44,072 nt of DNA from a virus (IMGVR_UViG_3300045988_043987), one strand, 5' to 3'; positions 5,424-44,072 are shown, numbered from the stretch's first letter. Translations and numbers: made by a program. Notes: a model not told the origin generated them from the letters alone.

Positions 5424-5456
5424 CGAATAGTACCCTATTATATTGGTGTCTGCAAA
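5424..5456. promoter_or_regulatory. conserved dyad operator/promoter motif, copy 1
   Basis: CGAATAGTACCCTATTATATTGGTGTCTGCAAA; core AATAG-N4-CTATT with TATAAT on the minus strand. Confidence 0.6.
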
Positions 5457-6543: not shown

Positions 6544-7004
6544 TGATGGGCTTTTTCAAAGTAACTGATGTACCGTCGCGTCGCGTAGTCCAGTACGCCC
6601 GCGTGTCTGGCTCCGGCGAGAACGTAGTATTTATTGAGGATGAAAGTGTACTAGGTACACCAGTAGACGATATGCCGTTTGCGGATAAGACAGGCATCGC
6701 ACTTCCTGCGGCAGGTATGCTTTATGAGATTCCGTATCTGGCTGATGCGGGTGATGTGTATTTCTCCGAGCAACCGAAAGATGCGGAACTGGTAGACGGC
6801 AGCGCAACCCTCACTGTCGAAGTTAAAGCAGGTGAAGCGCCGTATACACTGACCTGGTACAAAGACGGTAAGGAAGTGGTAAACGCCCCGGAAGAGGCCT
6901 TGTCTCTGACGGTCAATGCAGTTGGTGAATACTTCGTTAAGGTTACTGATGCCGATGGTGTAGATGCGGTAAGTAAAGCGGCGAAGGTTACTAAGCCAGA
7001 ATGA
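6543..7004 (+). CDS. Ig-like domain protein (putative capsid decoration)
   Basis: Ig-like beta-sandwich signature TLTVEVKAGEAPYTLTWYKDGKEV. Confidence 0.6.
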   Translation: MMGFFKVTDVPSRRVVQYARVSGSGENVVFIEDESVLGTPVDDMPFADKTGIALPAAGMLYEIPYLADAGDVYFSEQPKDAELVDGSATLTVEVKAGEAPYTLTWYKDGKEVVNAPEEALSLTVNAVGEYFVKVTDADGVDAVSKAAKVTKPE

Positions 7005-7006
7005 TA

Positions 7007-7038
7007 AAAGGCCCCTTATGGGGCCTTAATTTTATTTA
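7007..7038. terminator. bidirectional intrinsic terminator
   Basis: AAAAGGCCCC-TTAT-GGGGCCTT followed by AATTTTATTT. Confidence 0.7.
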
Positions 7039-7553
7039 AATCGCGCTGGCATTAGCACCATAAATGCAGTGTTTGAAAATGATATTTTGCATCCTCTGAT
7101 TTGGTCCTGGAAATCGAAACGAGCGATTTCATTTTTGTATGCCTTAGAAATCTTGTGCGCGTCCGCCAAGTAGCGCAGGGTGAACCCTATGCTGTCAACC
7201 GCCCCCGGCGTGATGTGCGCCACACGTCTCCAGTCAGGAAACCTTCCGTCTACAACATCTACCGGAAGTGTACATATAAGCGCACGACTATCGTCATAGA
7301 AAGAAACGCTGCTGTTGTCGTGGTCTACTTCCGCGTAGTTAAATTTAGAAGGCTCTCTCCCTTTGATGTCTATGAGAACCGCATTCTCAACGTTTGTCTT
7401 AACGTTGTCGCAGAACAATCTATGACCGTCCGTAGACACTATCAATCCCTCCGGGTCTATGTAAAAAGCATTCAAATAATAGCGCACATCATTTTTAGCT
7501 CTGCATATTTTTGCCCCTACATACGCAGGGAAAGTAATTACTGTAGTAGCCAT
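7032..7553 (-). CDS. truncated beta sliding clamp (DnaN)-like protein
   Basis: segments DVRYYLNA, STDGHRLF, VDGRFPDWRRV, SIGFTLRYLADA and C-terminal MVLMPARFK match recalled enterobacterial DnaN domain II and C-terminus; GAGGAGG ribosome-binding site; own promoter motif. Confidence 0.7.
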   Translation of the reverse strand: MATTVITFPAYVGAKICRAKNDVRYYLNAFYIDPEGLIVSTDGHRLFCDNVKTNVENAVLIDIKGREPSKFNYAEVDHDNSSVSFYDDSRALICTLPVDVVDGRFPDWRRVAHITPGAVDSIGFTLRYLADAHKISKAYKNEIARFDFQDQIRGCKISFSNTAFMVLMPARFK

Positions 7554-7578
7554 TTTAACTCCTCCTCGTTTCGATAAC

Positions 7579-7611
7579 TGAATAGTACCCTATTATGTTG
7601 GGGTGTGCAAA
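7579..7611. promoter_or_regulatory. conserved dyad operator/promoter motif, copy 2
   Basis: TGAATAGTACCCTATTATGTTGGGGTGTGCAAA; minus-strand reading precedes the clamp-like gene's ribosome-binding site. Confidence 0.6.
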
Positions 7612-7661
7612 CTATTTATTAGCCTATTCCAGTTATTCCGCTCAATTGTAAATGTTGGAAT

Positions 7662-7704
7662 AAACTATTCGAATAGTTGACTTTTCACTAAAAATATGCT
7701 AAGC
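7662..7704 (+). promoter_or_regulatory. promoter of ncRNA A with upstream perfect palindrome
   Basis: palindrome AACTATTCGAATAGTT (7662-7677) overlapping -35 TTGACT (7676-7681); 17-bp spacer; -10 TAAGCT (7699-7704). Confidence 0.55.
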
Positions 7705-7710
7705 TCCACC

Positions 7711-7910
7711 TGAGCTTGTGAAGTATGAACAAGCGACCGCGGCGCGGGCAGGTAACGGAGCGGGACGTAAGTCCTGAGTGTAGTTACGCTGACGCGTTCG
7801 GAAGGGCCATACTCTATTGCTTGTGTAAAAAGTAACTGGTTTACTGAGATTACGCCGTTTCTATGTTTAAATGATAAGGACTAGCGCCCCGCTTTATGGC
7901 GGGGCTTTAC
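7711..7910 (+). ncRNA. candidate structured small RNA, paralog A
   Basis: own promoter; 5' hairpin GCUUGU-N9-ACAAGC; internal hairpin GGAC-GUAA-GUCC; conserved 3' segment UUCGGAAGGGCCAUA; terminator-like hairpin GCCCCGC-N6-GCGGGGC plus U-rich tail; paralog at 38625. Confidence 0.5.
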
Positions 7911-7929
7911 TTATCGAGAAAGGAGAAAC

Positions 7930-8316
7930 ATGAATCTTAAAGCAACTGTCGTAGCGGGAGCATGTTTCATCATCCTGGCTTACGCACACGGCATCCACCA
8001 GTATCGCAGCGGCTGGCACGAAGGCCGGGCGAATCTCGTTTCGCAGCAACAGCAGAAAGCACAAGCTGAGTTAGCGAAGAAAACACAACGGCAGCAGCAG
8101 GATGAATCAAAGGCCGCAGCCGCTGACAACGAAGGCAAGACGAAATCAGAGGTGATTACCCGTGAAGTCGTTAAGTACATTAAAACGCCTGGCCGCAGCG
8201 TGTGCACTTTTGACCCTGAGCGCGTGCAGCTCAAGTCCCGCGCCGTCGCAAACGCAAATTCCATCCCCGGATATGACGATGATGCAGCCTCCGTGCAAAC
8301 TGGCGCCGCCAAGTAG
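7930..8316 (+). CDS. i-spanin (Rz-like)
   Basis: N-terminal TM helix, Q/K-rich coiled-coil region, o-spanin gene overlapping in another frame. Confidence 0.75.
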   Translation: MNLKATVVAGACFIILAYAHGIHQYRSGWHEGRANLVSQQQQKAQAELAKKTQRQQQDESKAAAADNEGKTKSEVITREVVKYIKTPGRSVCTFDPERVQLKSRAVANANSIPGYDDDAASVQTGAAK

Positions 8317-8425
8317 CGACGCTGACGAGGATTTGGCTATCGACGTTCAGAACGCCGAATGTGTACGGCAACTGAGACTGAAAGTGTTCATGTTGCAGGA
8401 TTACGTGAGGAATATTCTGGAATAG
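8162..8425 (+). CDS. o-spanin (Rz1-like outer-membrane lipoprotein)
   Basis: signal peptide with lipobox LSAC, proline-rich mature part; GTG start with GAGGTGA; begins inside Rz and extends past its stop. Confidence 0.7.
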   Translation: MKSLSTLKRLAAACALLTLSACSSSPAPSQTQIPSPDMTMMQPPCKLAPPSSDADEDLAIDVQNAECVRQLRLKVFMLQDYVRNILE

Positions 8426-8507
8426 TTGCCTTGCATGTTGGAATAATTTATTCTTGACATGTAAATCCGGGTGGCCCGGGTTCCAACGTCCAGGGGACAT
8501 ACTGACT

Positions 8508-9209
8508 ATGAATCGTTTTTTACGTTATCCGTTCCAGGAAGAAGCTGGGGCAGAAGATAAAGCTGGTGGCGGTGACGCGCCGAAAATGTTCACCGCTGAA
8601 GAAGTTCAGGCGCTGATTGAGAAAGAAGTCGCCGGGCTTAAGGCCAATCAGGAAGCGTTGCTGGCGGAGAAGAAAGAAGCCGCTCGCAAAGCAAAAGAGG
8701 CCGAAGAAGAACGGCAGCGCGCACACCAGGAGGCGTTAAAAGCCGCTGGTAAGATGGACGAGTTCGAAAAAACGATTCGTAGCCAGTATGACCCGGTGCT
8801 AGCCGAGAAAGATGGCCGCATCTCCAGAATGGCAGAGCGCATCCTCGGCAGCGAACGTAAAGCGGTGTTAGGCTCTTTCGCAGGTGACTTCATCACCCCG
8901 GAAGCAGTGGACATCCTTGCACCGTTCGTTAAGACTGAGTTCGAAGGTGATGATGTGGTTACTAAGTTTGTCGGTGCAGATGGCAACGTAATCACGACTG
9001 ACCCGGAACAGTTCCGCAAATATCTGCGCGAACACAAAGCGTTTTCGCATTTGATTAAAGCAAATGCAGCTTCCGGCGGCGGGGCTTCCGGTGGCAAAGG
9101 CGGCGGGGCCGCACCAGCGTTTAAAGACATGAGTGAAGCGGAGCGTTTAGCTCTGTATAAATCGAACCCTGCCGAATTTGAACGGCAACTTAAAGCCCTG
9201 AGGAAATAA
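8508..9209 (+). CDS. scaffolding protein
   Basis: charged alpha-helical/coiled-coil sequence with Gly-rich C-terminal region, immediately upstream of major capsid gene. Confidence 0.6.
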   Translation: MNRFLRYPFQEEAGAEDKAGGGDAPKMFTAEEVQALIEKEVAGLKANQEALLAEKKEAARKAKEAEEERQRAHQEALKAAGKMDEFEKTIRSQYDPVLAEKDGRISRMAERILGSERKAVLGSFAGDFITPEAVDILAPFVKTEFEGDDVVTKFVGADGNVITTDPEQFRKYLREHKAFSHLIKANAASGGGASGGKGGGAAPAFKDMSEAERLALYKSNPAEFERQLKALRK

Positions 9210-9211
9210 TA

Positions 9212-10261
9212 ATGGCAATTACCACTATCGGCGATATCGTAACTAGCAACATCCCGGTCTTGGCGTCTTATATGACCGAGGACCCGGTAGAGAAAACCGC
9301 GTTCTTCCAGTCCGGTATTCTGACCCCGACTCCGTACGCCGCAGAGATTGCTCGTGGCCCTTCCAACGTCGCCAACATTCCTTTCTGGAAAGCGATTGAT
9401 GCCTCTATCGAGCCTAACTATTCGAACGACGTGTATCAGGACATCGCTACCCCGCGTAACGTGCAGACCGGTGAGATGATGGCCCGCGTTGCGTACCTGA
9501 ACGAAGGTTTCGGCCAGGCGGACCTGACTGTCGAACTGACCAGTCAGAATCCGCTGCAATCCGTGGCTTCTCGTCTGGATAACTTCTGGCAGCGCCAGGC
9601 ACAACGCCGTCTGATTGCTACCGCGCTGGGTCTGTACAACGACAACGTAGCCGCTACTGATGCTTACCACGAGAAGGATGACATGGTTATCGACGTGTCC
9701 GCTACTCTGGGCTTCGACGCGGGTGCATTCATCGACGCTACCCAGACTATGGGCGACGCTCTGATGGGCAACGGTGGTGAAGTGCTGGGCGCCATTGCTA
9801 TGCACAGCTTCGTTTATGCGCAGGCGCGTAAGCAGCAGCTTATTGACTTCATCAAAGACGCCGACAACGACACCCTGTTTGCCACCTACCAGGGCTACCG
9901 CGTGATTGTTGACGACAGCATGACCGTGGTCGGCACTGGTCCAAGCCGTAAGTTCATCTCCATCATCTTCGGCAACGGCGCTATCGGTTATGGCGAAGGC
10001 AACCCGTCCAACCCGCTGGAATATGAGCGCGAAGCGTCTCGCGGTAACGGCGGTGGCATTGAAACCCTGTGGACCCGTAAGACCTGGCTGTTGCACCCGC
10101 TGGGTTACAGCTTCACCAGCGCAGTAATCACTGGCAACGGCACCGAGACTACCCCGCGCTCTGCTTCATGGCAGGACCTGGCGAACGCCTCCAACTGGAA
10201 CCGTGTTGTTGACCGTAAGCACGTACCGATTGCCTTCCTGGTAACTGGTGTCGGTGCTTAA
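9212..10261 (+). CDS. major capsid protein
   Basis: 349-aa ORF after scaffold gene, GAGGA ribosome-binding site, followed by attenuating terminator. Confidence 0.7.
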   Translation: MAITTIGDIVTSNIPVLASYMTEDPVEKTAFFQSGILTPTPYAAEIARGPSNVANIPFWKAIDASIEPNYSNDVYQDIATPRNVQTGEMMARVAYLNEGFGQADLTVELTSQNPLQSVASRLDNFWQRQAQRRLIATALGLYNDNVAATDAYHEKDDMVIDVSATLGFDAGAFIDATQTMGDALMGNGGEVLGAIAMHSFVYAQARKQQLIDFIKDADNDTLFATYQGYRVIVDDSMTVVGTGPSRKFISIIFGNGAIGYGEGNPSNPLEYEREASRGNGGGIETLWTRKTWLLHPLGYSFTSAVITGNGTETTPRSASWQDLANASNWNRVVDRKHVPIAFLVTGVGA

Positions 10262-11019: not shown

Positions 11020-11199
11020 ATGGCTGATAATTACGTAATCCGCGAAAAGTATACCCACGTTGATGTTGTTGATGGGCAGGTGATGCCGGTTCGCGGTGTT
11101 GTAGAAGCGGATGAACTGGTTGCAACGCAACCGGACAACGAAGAAGCGCACAACAACGGCGGTGGTACTAAGCGTCGTCGCCGTAAGTCAGAGGAATAA
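11020..11199 (+). CDS. hypothetical small protein (59 aa), basic C-terminus
   Basis: ATG ORF preceded by GGAAAGG; below track cutoff. Confidence 0.35.
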   Translation: MADNYVIREKYTHVDVVDGQVMPVRGVVEADELVATQPDNEEAHNNGGGTKRRRRKSEE

Positions 11200-17122: not shown

Positions 17123-17156
17123 GTGAATAGTACCCTATTATATTGGGGCGCGCAAG
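17123..17156. promoter_or_regulatory. conserved dyad operator/promoter motif, copy 3
   Basis: GTGAATAGTACCCTATTATATTGGGGCGCGCAAG. Confidence 0.6.
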
Positions 17157-33074: not shown

Positions 33075-33106
33075 TGGTTAGAAATATAATAGCTAACTAT
33101 TCAGGT
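33075..33106 (-). promoter_or_regulatory. sigma70-like promoter (TTGACA-17-TATATT) with dyad operator in spacer
   Basis: minus-strand GTGTTGACA, 17-bp spacer containing TGAATAGTTAGCTATT, -10 TATATT; upstream of SSB gene. Confidence 0.6.
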
Positions 33107-35167: not shown

Positions 35168-35200
35168 GTATGCACTAACTATAATAGCTAACTATTCATT
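35168..35200 (+). promoter_or_regulatory. dyad operator/promoter motif, copy upstream of helix-turn-helix gene (site 1)
   Basis: ATGCAC-TAAC-TATAAT-AGCTAACTATTCA. Confidence 0.55.
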
Positions 35201-35271: not shown

Positions 35272-35487
35272 ATGCAACCATCTGAACTAGGCATCCGTGT
35301 AGAACAACGCCGTAAAGAACTCGGTATCTCCCAGCGCCGTCTGGCGGTCCTGGCCGGTGTTTCCCAGGGCGCGATTAACCAGCTGGCACTTGGAGTAACT
35401 CAGGACGTCCGCCCGGCGACGCTGTTCAAGCTGGCGGAAGTGCTGGAAGTAGACGCCAAGTGGCTGGCGTTCGGTGAAGGGGCTTAA
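35272..35487 (+). CDS. XRE-family (Cro/CI-like) helix-turn-helix transcriptional regulator
   Basis: helix-turn-helix signature ISQRRLAVLAGVSQGAINQL; AAGGAG ribosome-binding site; lone plus-strand gene in minus-strand module. Confidence 0.75.
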   Translation: MQPSELGIRVEQRRKELGISQRRLAVLAGVSQGAINQLALGVTQDVRPATLFKLAEVLEVDAKWLAFGEGA

Positions 35488-38089: not shown

Positions 38090-38302
38090 TTATTTATCGC
38101 CTGCAAACCACGCGTGCGCAGAATCATAGAAACGACATTTACTTAACATGTCTACCGGCATCTTAATAATGCGCGTCGGTTCCGACAAATGATTAGGTTT
38201 ACATATTTCTGCATAGAATCCGCTGTCGGTAATTTCTGACGCAAACTTAAACCAGTATTTAACTTTACCGTTCTCAAAGTAACAACCCATACGCCCAATC
38301 AT
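38090..38302 (-). CDS. hypothetical protein (70 aa)
   Basis: ORF coupled to upstream helix-turn-helix gene. Confidence 0.5.
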   Translation of the reverse strand: MIGRMGCYFENGKVKYWFKFASEITDSGFYAEICKPNHLSEPTRIIKMPVDMLSKCRFYDSAHAWFAGDK

Positions 38303-38481
38303 TTCACGTTCTCCTTAATCCACGCTTCAACTTTATTACGGTCAAATGTTCCAGGTAAACGGCGGCCCATAACCTTAATACAACAGTCGGGGAATTTACC
38401 ACTGCGTAACCAGTTATTAATTGTCTGACGTGTCACCCCAATACGTTCTGCTACTTCATTCTGGGTCATGTAATGTTGCAT
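38299..38481 (-). CDS. helix-turn-helix DNA-binding protein (AlpA/excisionase-like fold)
   Basis: MTQNEVAERIGVTRQTINNWLRSGKFP; AGGAG before ATG at 38481 (track ORF extends to 38553). Confidence 0.65.
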   Translation of the reverse strand: MQHYMTQNEVAERIGVTRQTINNWLRSGKFPDCCIKVMGRRLPGTFDRNKVEAWIKENVK

Positions 38482-38589
38482 TTTTATATCTCCTGTTTGT
38501 TTAGTGAAGCCAAGTATAGGATAGCGTGAATGTAAAAGCAACCAAAACACCACACAAAGTTACTAAGATACAAAAGATGCTACTGGTAT

Positions 38590-38618
38590 TGACTTTTACT
38601 AAGAAATATGCTAAGCTC
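38590..38618 (+). promoter_or_regulatory. promoter of ncRNA B (TTGACT - 17 bp - TAAGCT)
   Basis: same hexamers and spacing as ncRNA A promoter. Confidence 0.55.
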
Positions 38619-38624
38619 GTCCTG

Positions 38625-38836
38625 AGCTTGTGAAGTATGAACAAGCGACCGCGGTGCGCGGCAGGCGAAACGAGCACGTCTCGACGTGTGGAGTGAGTCT
38701 CGCTGGCGCATTCGGAAGGGCCATAGTCTATTGTTATTCCCGCCTAAGTATCTAAGTTACTGATTTGACGTAGGTTAGAACCGCAAGCTCACTCACTCAC
38801 TCTTGGTGCCTTCGGCACCCCGTTCGTTTCGTTTCG
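38625..38836 (+). ncRNA. candidate structured small RNA, paralog B
   Basis: shares 5' 37 nt and 3' UUCGGAAGGGCCAUA segment with paralog A; internal hairpin CACGU-CUCG-ACGUG; terminator-like GGUGCC-UUCG-GCACC plus U-rich tail. Confidence 0.5.
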
Positions 38837-38885: not shown

Positions 38886-38919
38886 CTTGCACACCCCAAT
38901 ATAATAGGATACTATTCAC
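38886..38919 (+). promoter_or_regulatory. conserved dyad operator/promoter motif, copy 4 (TTGCAC-N7-TATAAT-AGGATACTATTCAC)
   Basis: perfect TATAAT at 38900-38905; about 30 nt upstream of ribosome-binding site of 38950 gene. Confidence 0.6.
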
Positions 38920-40412: not shown

Positions 40413-40447
40413 CTTGCACGCTAAGATAGAATAGGCTACTATTCACT
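40413..40447 (+). promoter_or_regulatory. conserved dyad operator/promoter motif, copy 5 (TTGCAC-N7-TAGAAT-AGGCTACTATTCAC)
   Basis: same architecture and leader (CACAAACGAGAGGAG) as copy 4. Confidence 0.55.
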
Positions 40448-43933: not shown

Positions 43934-43962
43934 CCGGCCCTGACCTAGCCGGGATTTTTTTT
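43934..43962 (+). terminator. intrinsic terminator
   Basis: CCCGGC-N9-GCCGGG followed by T8. Confidence 0.7.
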
Positions 43963-44072
43963 ATCTATTTTCTATAATGACTAGTTGACTATTATCTACG
44001 ACCCTACTATATTTACTCCATCGACAACGAGAACGGAGTAGAGAGAAATGATGACTAAGATTAAGCATACCG
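43954..44072. repeat. terminal direct repeat, right copy (identical to 1-119)
   Basis: exact 119-bp repetition of the window start. Confidence 0.9.

Follow-up and report, generated by a model that had tools for sequence, protein, structure and literature searches.

A candidate operator palindrome at the promoter-side end of a TATTC/GAATA array upstream of the RNA A promoter in a Kagunavirus-type phage genome

The window, that is, the whole stretch of 44,072 nucleotides analysed here (IMGVR_UViG_3300045988_043987), begins and ends with the same 119 bases, positions 1-119 and 43954-44072 being identical to each other, and it therefore represents one genome of 43,953 bp with its start repeated (circularly closed or permuted). 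Megablast searches with positions 7000-8400 matched Kagunavirus (Guernseyvirinae) phages at 92-94% identity, namely fFiEco03, XY2, Schulenburg and the BASEL phages Bas70-76, and on these matches the window is assigned to a Kagunavirus-type siphophage genome. Members of the Guernseyvirinae (Kagunavirus, Jerseyvirus) are common therapy and biocontrol phages, and they do not carry an RNA polymerase of their own. In the literature on Guernseyvirinae, Kagunavirus, Jerseyvirinae and Jerseyvirus, regulatory, transcript-start, binding or expression data were not found. The gene map was compiled from the annotation of relatives, the list of open reading frames and Pfam, and the features around the palindrome studied here are the following:

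end at 7004: head-decoration gene (relatives' annotation, open reading frames, Pfam)
7032-7553, minus strand: variable gene
7625-7639, plus strand: direct repeat TATTCC-AGT-TATTCC, upstream end of the half-site cluster
7657-7670: dyad GGAATA-AAC-TATTC (centre 7664, about -48), whose right arm doubles as the left arm of the palindrome
7663-7678: perfect 16-bp palindrome AACTATTCGAATAGTT, composed of AACTATTC and GAATAGTT, centre 7670.5, about -41.5 from the predicted start
7677-7682, plus strand: -35 hexamer TTGACT of the RNA A promoter
7697-7705, plus strand: extended -10 element TG-c-TAAGCT, after a 17-bp spacer
7712-7905, plus strand: RNA A, a structured leader with its core at about 7706-7815 (start predicted)
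7886-7905, plus strand: intrinsic terminator of RNA A, from the terminator scan
7930-8425: i- and o-spanin genes, downstream of the intergenic region
8409-8454, plus strand: second TATTC/GAATA cluster, with GGAATATTC, GGAATAG and GGAATA-ATT-TATTC(T)
8426-8454, plus strand: predicted scaffold/capsid promoter, TTGCCT (8426-8431)-N17-TATTCT (8449-8454)
8464-8482, plus strand: 5' hairpin after the scaffold promoter
8509: ATG of the scaffold gene
9212-10261: major capsid gene, followed by the tail genes

The intergenic region bearing the palindrome sits after the minus-strand gene at 7032-7553. In phages fEg-Eco19 and vB_VIPECOMC04, an HNH homing-endonuclease gene of approximately 570 bp is inserted between that gene and the intergenic region, upstream of the position equivalent to 7600 in the window.

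The RNA A promoter, P_A, has the layout TTGACT-N17-TGc-TAAGCT of a sigma-70 promoter with an extended -10 element. Across three genera the spacer differs, yet T-GA of the -35 hexamer, the TG dinucleotide and TA..CT of the -10 hexamer never change; the base after TG is freely variable (C, A or G), and positions 7679-7682 show no variation in 37 distinct Kagunavirus-type modules. Invariant core elements around a varying spacer are the footprint of a real sigma-70 promoter, and P_A can be credibly regarded as a convincing, strong predicted promoter of this class, although a consensus promoter scan misses it, as TAAGCT agrees with TATAAT at 3/6 positions only. Its predicted output is, in order, a structured leader RNA, a terminator, and then the spanin, scaffold, capsid and tail genes. 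A consensus fold of RNA A obtained with RNAalifold from 11 variants contains 28 pairs, 5 of them with compensatory double changes, and the terminator carries a compensatory change as well (CCCCGC/GCGGGG to CCCTGC/GCAGGG in loci L002 and L010). The conserved core of this RNA is present in 40 IMG/VR loci, and Rfam returned no RNA family, either in the whole window at gathering thresholds or in 7600-7940 at E<=10. A 36-aa open reading frame annotated within RNA A in relatives (window 7725-7835; Schulenberg_008, Bas70_0007) is probably a spurious call, since 1-nt indels among the variants break its frame.

We then focused on the palindrome itself. AACTATTCGAATAGTT is an 8+8 inverted repeat with no spacer and 8/8 symmetric pairs, as the first-pass annotation had described it; its coordinates, given there as 7662-7677, are off by one base and become 7663-7678. 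Relative to the predicted start at about 7712, it spans -49 to -34, and its 3' TT (7677-7678) constitutes the first two bases of the -35 element, so that the proposed overlap with TTGACT is borne out over 2 bp. Its arms contain the pentamers TATTC (7666-7670) and GAATA (7671-7675) in everted orientation, CTATT-CG-AATAG. It occurs once in the window and is the sole perfect 16-bp palindrome in the 43,953-bp genome; no further copy was detected in the window with up to three mismatches allowed. In IMG/VR, the exact 16-mer is found only in the RNA A module and in four unrelated, apparently chance contexts, and thus it is not a widespread operator. Moreover, dinucleotide-preserving shuffles of the genome yielded 0.83 perfect 16-bp palindromes per genome, with at least one in 53% of the shuffles; perfect symmetry by itself is therefore no evidence of function. 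An intrinsic terminator or RNA hairpin at this position was also considered and rejected, as the terminator scan is silent here, and the most that the sequence could form is a short A+T-rich stem (6 bp, closed by a loop of 4 nt), with no T run.

The sequence context of the palindrome is more informative than its symmetry. Five TATTC/GAATA pentamers are found within 7625-7675, and the palindrome forms the promoter-side end of this cluster. Such clusters exist in two places in the genome only, 7625-7675 and 8410-8453, with five copies each, and among 150 genomes simulated with a first-order Markov model none (0/150) reached even four pentamers in 56 bp. As the clustering is absent from the simulations, the palindrome is non-random by context, and not by symmetry alone. 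The neighbouring GGAATA/TATTCC repeats are true relatives of its half-sites, and both of its arms are pentamers lying in a cluster beside a promoter upstream of lysis/structural genes, which is how an array was defined in this analysis. Elsewhere in the window, matches to GGAATA-N3-TATTCC are weaker and at chance level only; one of them, a dyad match with one mismatch at 11193, was discarded because it consists of a stop codon plus the ribosome-binding site before a gene.

Conservation was evaluated within the Kagunavirus-type lineage and across genera. Within the lineage, the palindrome is perfect in 32 of the 37 distinct modules, and the other five are asymmetric, uncompensated singletons; one of these (L058, a divergent module) retains 6/8 symmetric pairs and has the dyad with N4 spacing. 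Symmetric compensating substitutions were found in none of the five variants. Nucleotide diversity over the 37 modules is 0.020 in the palindrome, 0.129 in the upstream linker and 0.092 in the promoter spacer, that is, 4-6 times lower in the palindrome than in the adjacent segments, with no common polymorphism. Moreover, in 157 of the 181 GenBank phage records containing the module, at least 28 consecutive nt of 7655-7686 are matched exactly. Judged by these values, the palindrome is under purifying selection within the Kagunavirus-type module. Nevertheless, the whole module of approximately 300 bp (331 bp) is 95-99% identical and is found on different backbones. In Salmonella phages (LSPA1, S102, and the ER and Kenya series), the non-coding A module (7600-7930) is 95-97% identical, as compared to only about 82% for the spanin and scaffold genes of the same phages (7930-9209), and LSPA1 pairs a Kagunavirus-type site 1 (the array at P_A) with a Jersey-type site 2 (the array at the scaffold promoter). 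These contrasts indicate that the module is both constrained and exchanged between backbones, and for that reason conservation discriminates poorly and carries less weight as support for the palindrome itself.

The layout of the window, comprising promoter, homologous RNA, terminator and spanin genes, recurs in Jerseyvirus 5sent1 and Cornellvirus FSL SP-031. Counted from the -35, the upstream regions of both can be aligned with the window ungapped:

window: TGTTGGAATAAACTATTCGAATAG, followed by -35 TTGACT
5sent1 (Jerseyvirus): TTCAGGAATACTTTATTCCAAAAA, followed by -35 TAGACT
SP-031 (Cornellvirus): AATAGGAATAAATTATTCAAAAAG, followed by -35 TGGATT

GGAATA and TATTC of the 7657-7670 dyad are invariant, with constant ungapped spacing to the -35, in the modules of three genera (Kagunavirus, Jerseyvirus and Cornellvirus) that differ in linker and spacer sequence, and some Cornellvirus-type loci have the perfect dyad GGAATAA-A-TTATTCC. 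The direct repeat at 7625-7639 is likewise invariant, in sequence and in distance from the -35, in the three lineages as TATTCCA-TTATTC, and opens the conserved block in all A-type loci. Of the palindrome, Jerseyvirus and Cornellvirus keep the left half only, the right half being an A-tract (AAAAAG or CAAAAA). The substitutions that create the palindrome (TTATTCC to CTATTCG, spacer AAC) slightly degrade the older dyad. Hence the conserved unit is the larger array, consisting of the 7625-7639 repeat and the 7657-7670 dyad, and not the 16-bp palindrome, which is a lineage-specific extension of a deeper-conserved element.

These observations bear on the main rival to an operator, according to which the palindrome has no separate function. 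The segment would be generic promoter-upstream DNA (UP-like, AT-rich, serving alpha-CTD contact or curvature), and its symmetry would be a by-product of a few lineage-specific substitutions in a conserved module recently spread by recombination. The chance rate given above fits this reading, and so does the finding that sister lineages lacking the palindrome carry an A-tract at -41 to -37, from which the right half differs at two positions only. The proximal UP subsite, with the consensus AAAAAARNR, is an alpha-CTD site at -46 to -38, and we take the sister-lineage A-tract to resemble it. The near-identity of the mosaic module everywhere, together with the missing compensatory changes, points in the same direction. 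On the other hand, the right half is a further exact GAATA with four other pentamers within 50 bp, a clustering that none of the simulated genomes showed; going from the 3-4 of 8 symmetric pairs in Jerseyvirus and Cornellvirus to 8/8 takes 4-5 directed changes; diversity is depressed relative to linker and spacer; and GAATAG breaks up, rather than improves, the UP-like A-tract. Overall, we regard incidental symmetry as unlikely, yet as an explanation to be taken seriously.

The second array accompanies the scaffold/capsid promoter. There, the dyad overlaps the -10 hexamer TATTCT; the -35 and -10 are invariant across lineages, and the upstream spacer varies. Although sigma-70 requires no specific sequence in a promoter spacer, the GGAATA arm located in this one is kept in 7/8 lineage representatives, whereas the rest of the spacer varies. 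The site-1 and site-2 dyads are found together in 45 loci and are both missing in one lineage (L094/L097), a co-occurrence that is confounded by phylogeny. Downstream, the hairpin at 8464-8482 shows compensatory stem changes between lineages (AATCCGGG/CCCGGATT, ACACCGGG/CCCGGTGT and AGCCGGG/CCCGGCT), and may be a 5'-stabilising or processing hairpin. It is followed by an invariant ribosome-binding-site region ahead of the scaffold gene (window 8426-8510).

In more distant relatives, the -10 of the scaffold promoter carries another palindrome, GTTATAAC or GTTAT-N3-ATAAC, and some of these relatives repeat it in the spacer of a promoter approximately 1.35 kb upstream. A like two-site layout with a different half-site is as expected for lineage-specific pairs of regulator and operator. 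Clusters of GTTAT/ATAAC upstream were not found in the distant lineages, which have single palindromes at the two promoters only. The scaffold -10 palindromes of L100-L104 (about 2092-2202), L095/L096 and L092/L098/L105/L106 read GTTAT-GAT-ATAAC, GTTAT-GGT-ATAAC or GTTATAAC. They resemble the enterobacterial Zur box core, TGTTATA-N-TATAACA, a similarity that may be a coincidence of AT-rich -10 symmetry.

A further alternative is a role at the DNA level apart from transcription initiation: the palindrome might mark a site of recombination or a module border beside the RNA A-spanin cassette, extrude a cruciform, or be cut by an endonuclease. Direct repeats of 19 bp that are nearly identical, ATGTTGGAATAAnnTATTC, do flank the cassette at 7652-7670 and 8435-8453, the A module has been exchanged between backbones, and HNH endonuclease genes lie nearby in some relatives. 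Yet none of the relatives examined has the cassette deleted between the repeats, the fixed distance from dyad to -35 across genera points to coupling with the promoter, and a hairpin would be weak, with an AT-rich 6-bp stem. As the HNH insertions in relatives are located upstream of 7600 and not at the palindrome, a homing-endonuclease target at the palindrome was rejected, and a DNA-level role in general seems very improbable.

To place the palindrome in relation to the second RNA of the genome, locus A was compared with its paralog, whose promoter is the following:

38589-38617, plus strand: RNA B promoter TTGACT-N17-TAAGCT, paralog of P_A

Paralogy to locus A covers the promoter and approximately 110 nt downstream, from 38589 on. 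RNAs A (7706-7905) and B (38618-38820) are paralogous and structured, have no Rfam match and stand behind near-identical strong promoters. Both head rightward operons that follow a hairpin/terminator, spanin-scaffold-capsid-tail for A and small genes-holin-endolysin-terminase-portal for B. The homologues of these RNAs in Jerseyvirus and Cornellvirus have different first hairpins, and just downstream of RNA B a (CTCA)n microsatellite (38788-38802) has three units here and six in L006.

Neither the palindrome nor a TATTC/GAATA repeat was found upstream of the B promoters in any phage examined, in agreement with the first-pass annotation, which had reported the palindrome as absent from the B promoter of this genome. 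Four loci (L016, L021, L035 and L041) are B loci with an A-like promoter and RNA, and they still lack the palindrome; the array therefore belongs to the locus before the spanin and structural genes, and not to the RNA type. Read from the sequence, locus A has a cis-element input that locus B lacks, which makes differential control of the two loci plausible. The earlier proposal that the palindrome differentially regulates two RNA paralogs is thus retained in part: the promoter is credible, and the palindrome touches its -35 and is absent at B. As worded, it needs revision, since the conserved unit is larger than the palindrome, the element tracks the locus rather than the paralog, and a sister array lies at the scaffold -10.

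A further proposal was that the palindrome is built from the half-sites of a dyad family in the window, AATAG-N4-CTATT, which has seven sites of 14 bp each with inward-facing arms:

5426-5439, 7581-7594, 17126-17139, 33088-33101, 35183-35196, 38903-38916 and 40430-40443: AATAG-N4-CTATT dyads

Five of these sites cover the TACTAT -10 in promoters of the TTGCnn-N17-TACTAT type; three of them belong to minus-strand promoters (-10 ending at 5427, 7582 and 17127), the other two to plus-strand promoters (starting at 38887 and 40414). The site at 35183-35196 lies in the spacer beside the -10 (TATAGT) of a minus-strand promoter. The proposal holds only loosely: the palindrome shares with the family no more than the 7-mer ACTATTC/GAATAGT and the character of an AT-rich dyad at a promoter. 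Arm orientation, spacing, and promoter position and class are different, as its arms face outward with 2 bp between the pentamers and no spacer between the halves, and it lies at -49 to -34, upstream of the -35. Similarity to these sites is also what might suggest a cryptic promoter element, in which the palindrome would supply a -10-like hexamer on one or both strands for divergent transcription: the 7-mer ACTATTC is common to the palindrome and the TACTATTC -10 regions of the TTGCnn-N17-TACTAT promoters, and TTAGCA-N18-AACTAT can be read on the minus strand. However, the palindrome contains no TAnnnT hexamer on either strand, no acceptable plus-strand -35 exists at 16-18 bp, and the promoter scan is silent, so that we rejected a cryptic -10 or divergent promoter as barely credible.

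Two phage proteins with predicted helix-turn-helix domains are candidates for binding the array:

35272-35487: HTH_3 protein, 71 aa (Pfam), candidate binder
38299-38553: HTH_17 protein, 84 aa (Pfam), candidate binder

Both occur throughout the subfamily. The Cro-like HTH_3 protein is a natural candidate repressor of the TTGCnn-N17-TACTAT class, because a family dyad lies in the divergent promoter region beside its gene. Palindrome-bearing modules coexist with versions of the two proteins that are 52-99% identical (52% for HTH_3 in ER17, 62.5% for HTH_17 in ER23). Accordingly, a tie between the palindrome and either protein by co-occurrence was rejected, as there is no covariation and strongly diverged versions coexist with the palindrome. 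The binder might also be a host protein that Escherichia and Salmonella share. In its most specific form, this alternative holds that the palindrome is a host transcription factor site at the classic class II position of -41.5, for instance for a dimer of the LacI/GalR or DeoR type, coupling the late genes to host physiology. The operators of the LacI/GalR family and DeoR have as their general architecture a spacer-less 16-bp palindrome with a central CpG. The centre at about -41.5 and the 16-bp, spacer-less symmetry around a CpG fit such a site, as does the near-identity of the module among phages of Escherichia and Salmonella with HTH proteins diverged to 52-62% identity. It is nevertheless rather improbable, given that the half-site is not known to match any E. 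coli operator consensus (CRP, FNR, PurR, FruR, GalR, DeoR, TrpR, ArgR, Fur, Zur), that the core promoter is already strong and needs no activation, that sister lineages on the same hosts do without the palindrome, and that in IMG/VR the exact 16-mer is confined to the module and its four apparently chance contexts.

The sequence and position of the palindrome, its conservation, the half-site arrays and their absence from locus B are direct observations, and the reading that we prefer is that the palindrome is an operator-type protein-binding site at the promoter-proximal end of a half-site array of about 55 bp. Our confidence in this interpretation is evenly balanced. In favour of it, the palindrome borders on and reaches into the -35 of a phylogenetically footprinted promoter, has dyad symmetry, and is conserved above its neutral flanks within the Kagunavirus-type module only. 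Against an operator stand the lack of symmetric substitutions and of recurrence elsewhere, as only the pentamer core recurs, and in a different arrangement. In addition, its half-sites are everted (TATTC|GAATA) as compared to the deeper dyad (GAATA-N3-TATTC), so that one dimer could not bind both alike, and Jerseyvirus and Cornellvirus modules evidently function without the right half of the palindrome.

From these features we infer protein binding, the kind of binder and the sign of its effect as follows. A sequence-specific, probably dimeric DNA-binding protein, for which a helix-turn-helix protein of the phage and a factor present in both Escherichia and Salmonella hosts are the candidates, would recognise GAATA/TATTC half-sites at the P_A array. 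The same protein would bind the second array approximately 780 bp downstream, where the dyad lies over the scaffold/capsid -10. The Kagunavirus-type palindrome would represent an extra, lineage-specific half-site replacing the UP-like A-tract of the sister lineages. With the palindrome occupied, access of sigma region 4 and alpha-CTD would most likely be impeded, and the firing of P_A would in this way be lowered or timed, providing a control input for A and not for B. A negative or timing effect is the most likely one because the P_A core is already near-consensus and strong.

Taken alone, the palindrome is a routine candidate operator, an element of a familiar kind. Its interest may lie in its use as a handle or probe for a late-gene regulator, as it marks arrays at the promoters of the spanin and of the scaffold/capsid genes and sets locus A apart from its paralog B. 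A far-reaching extension, which we regard as a long shot, is that the arrays and the palindrome are the DNA sites of an unrecognised late-gene switch of the Guernseyvirinae. One regulator would act at P_A and at the scaffold -10, and the leader RNAs A and B would act in cis on host RNA polymerase, in a put-like or nut-like manner, for terminator read-through, with the palindrome timing the release of the A, but not the B, operon.

Comparison with known systems places the preferred reading, an operator at the end of an array, closest to familiar phage operators. In lambda (OR/OL with CI and Cro), 434 and P22, short palindromes likewise abut or overlap one of the core hexamers of strong sigma-70 promoters of the early type, related sites occur in groups within one regulatory region, and small HTH proteins are encoded by the phage. 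Unlike those operators, the candidate site described here is tied to neither HTH protein of its phage, its exact sequence is present in a single copy, its half-sites are spacer-less and everted relative to the neighbouring conserved dyad, and the phage, which lacks a lysogeny module, is lytic. DeoR and LacI/GalR operators resemble it as perfect, spacer-less 16-bp palindromes with a central CpG, and the looping deo, gal and lac systems also have a related site hundreds of bp away, the distance between dyad centres here being 783 bp. Differently from these, the half-site is not known to fit any of the consensus operators, and the distal site is a 5-N3-5 dyad, arranged in another way; with LacI/GalR in particular, length and central CG agree, but the half-site CTATTC does not appear to resemble the TGnAAnC-type consensus. 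The palindrome occupies the same position as a proximal UP-element subsite, with an A-tract there in sister lineages; in contrast to UP elements, GAATAG interrupts the A-tract, and exact dyad symmetry is no property of such elements.

At the level of the whole locus, lambda PR'-qut-6S RNA-tR' and HK022 putL/putR are the nearest counterparts. No Q-like or N-like gene was identified in the window and there is no sequence or Rfam similarity to these systems; moreover, unlike in them, the B paralog here has no DNA element, which makes a shared DNA-loading mechanism unlikely. Nevertheless, the arrangement itself is alike: as in lambda, a strong constitutive promoter, a short structured transcript and a terminator precede the late lysis and structural genes, and, as in HK022, two paralogous leader RNAs head two long operons.
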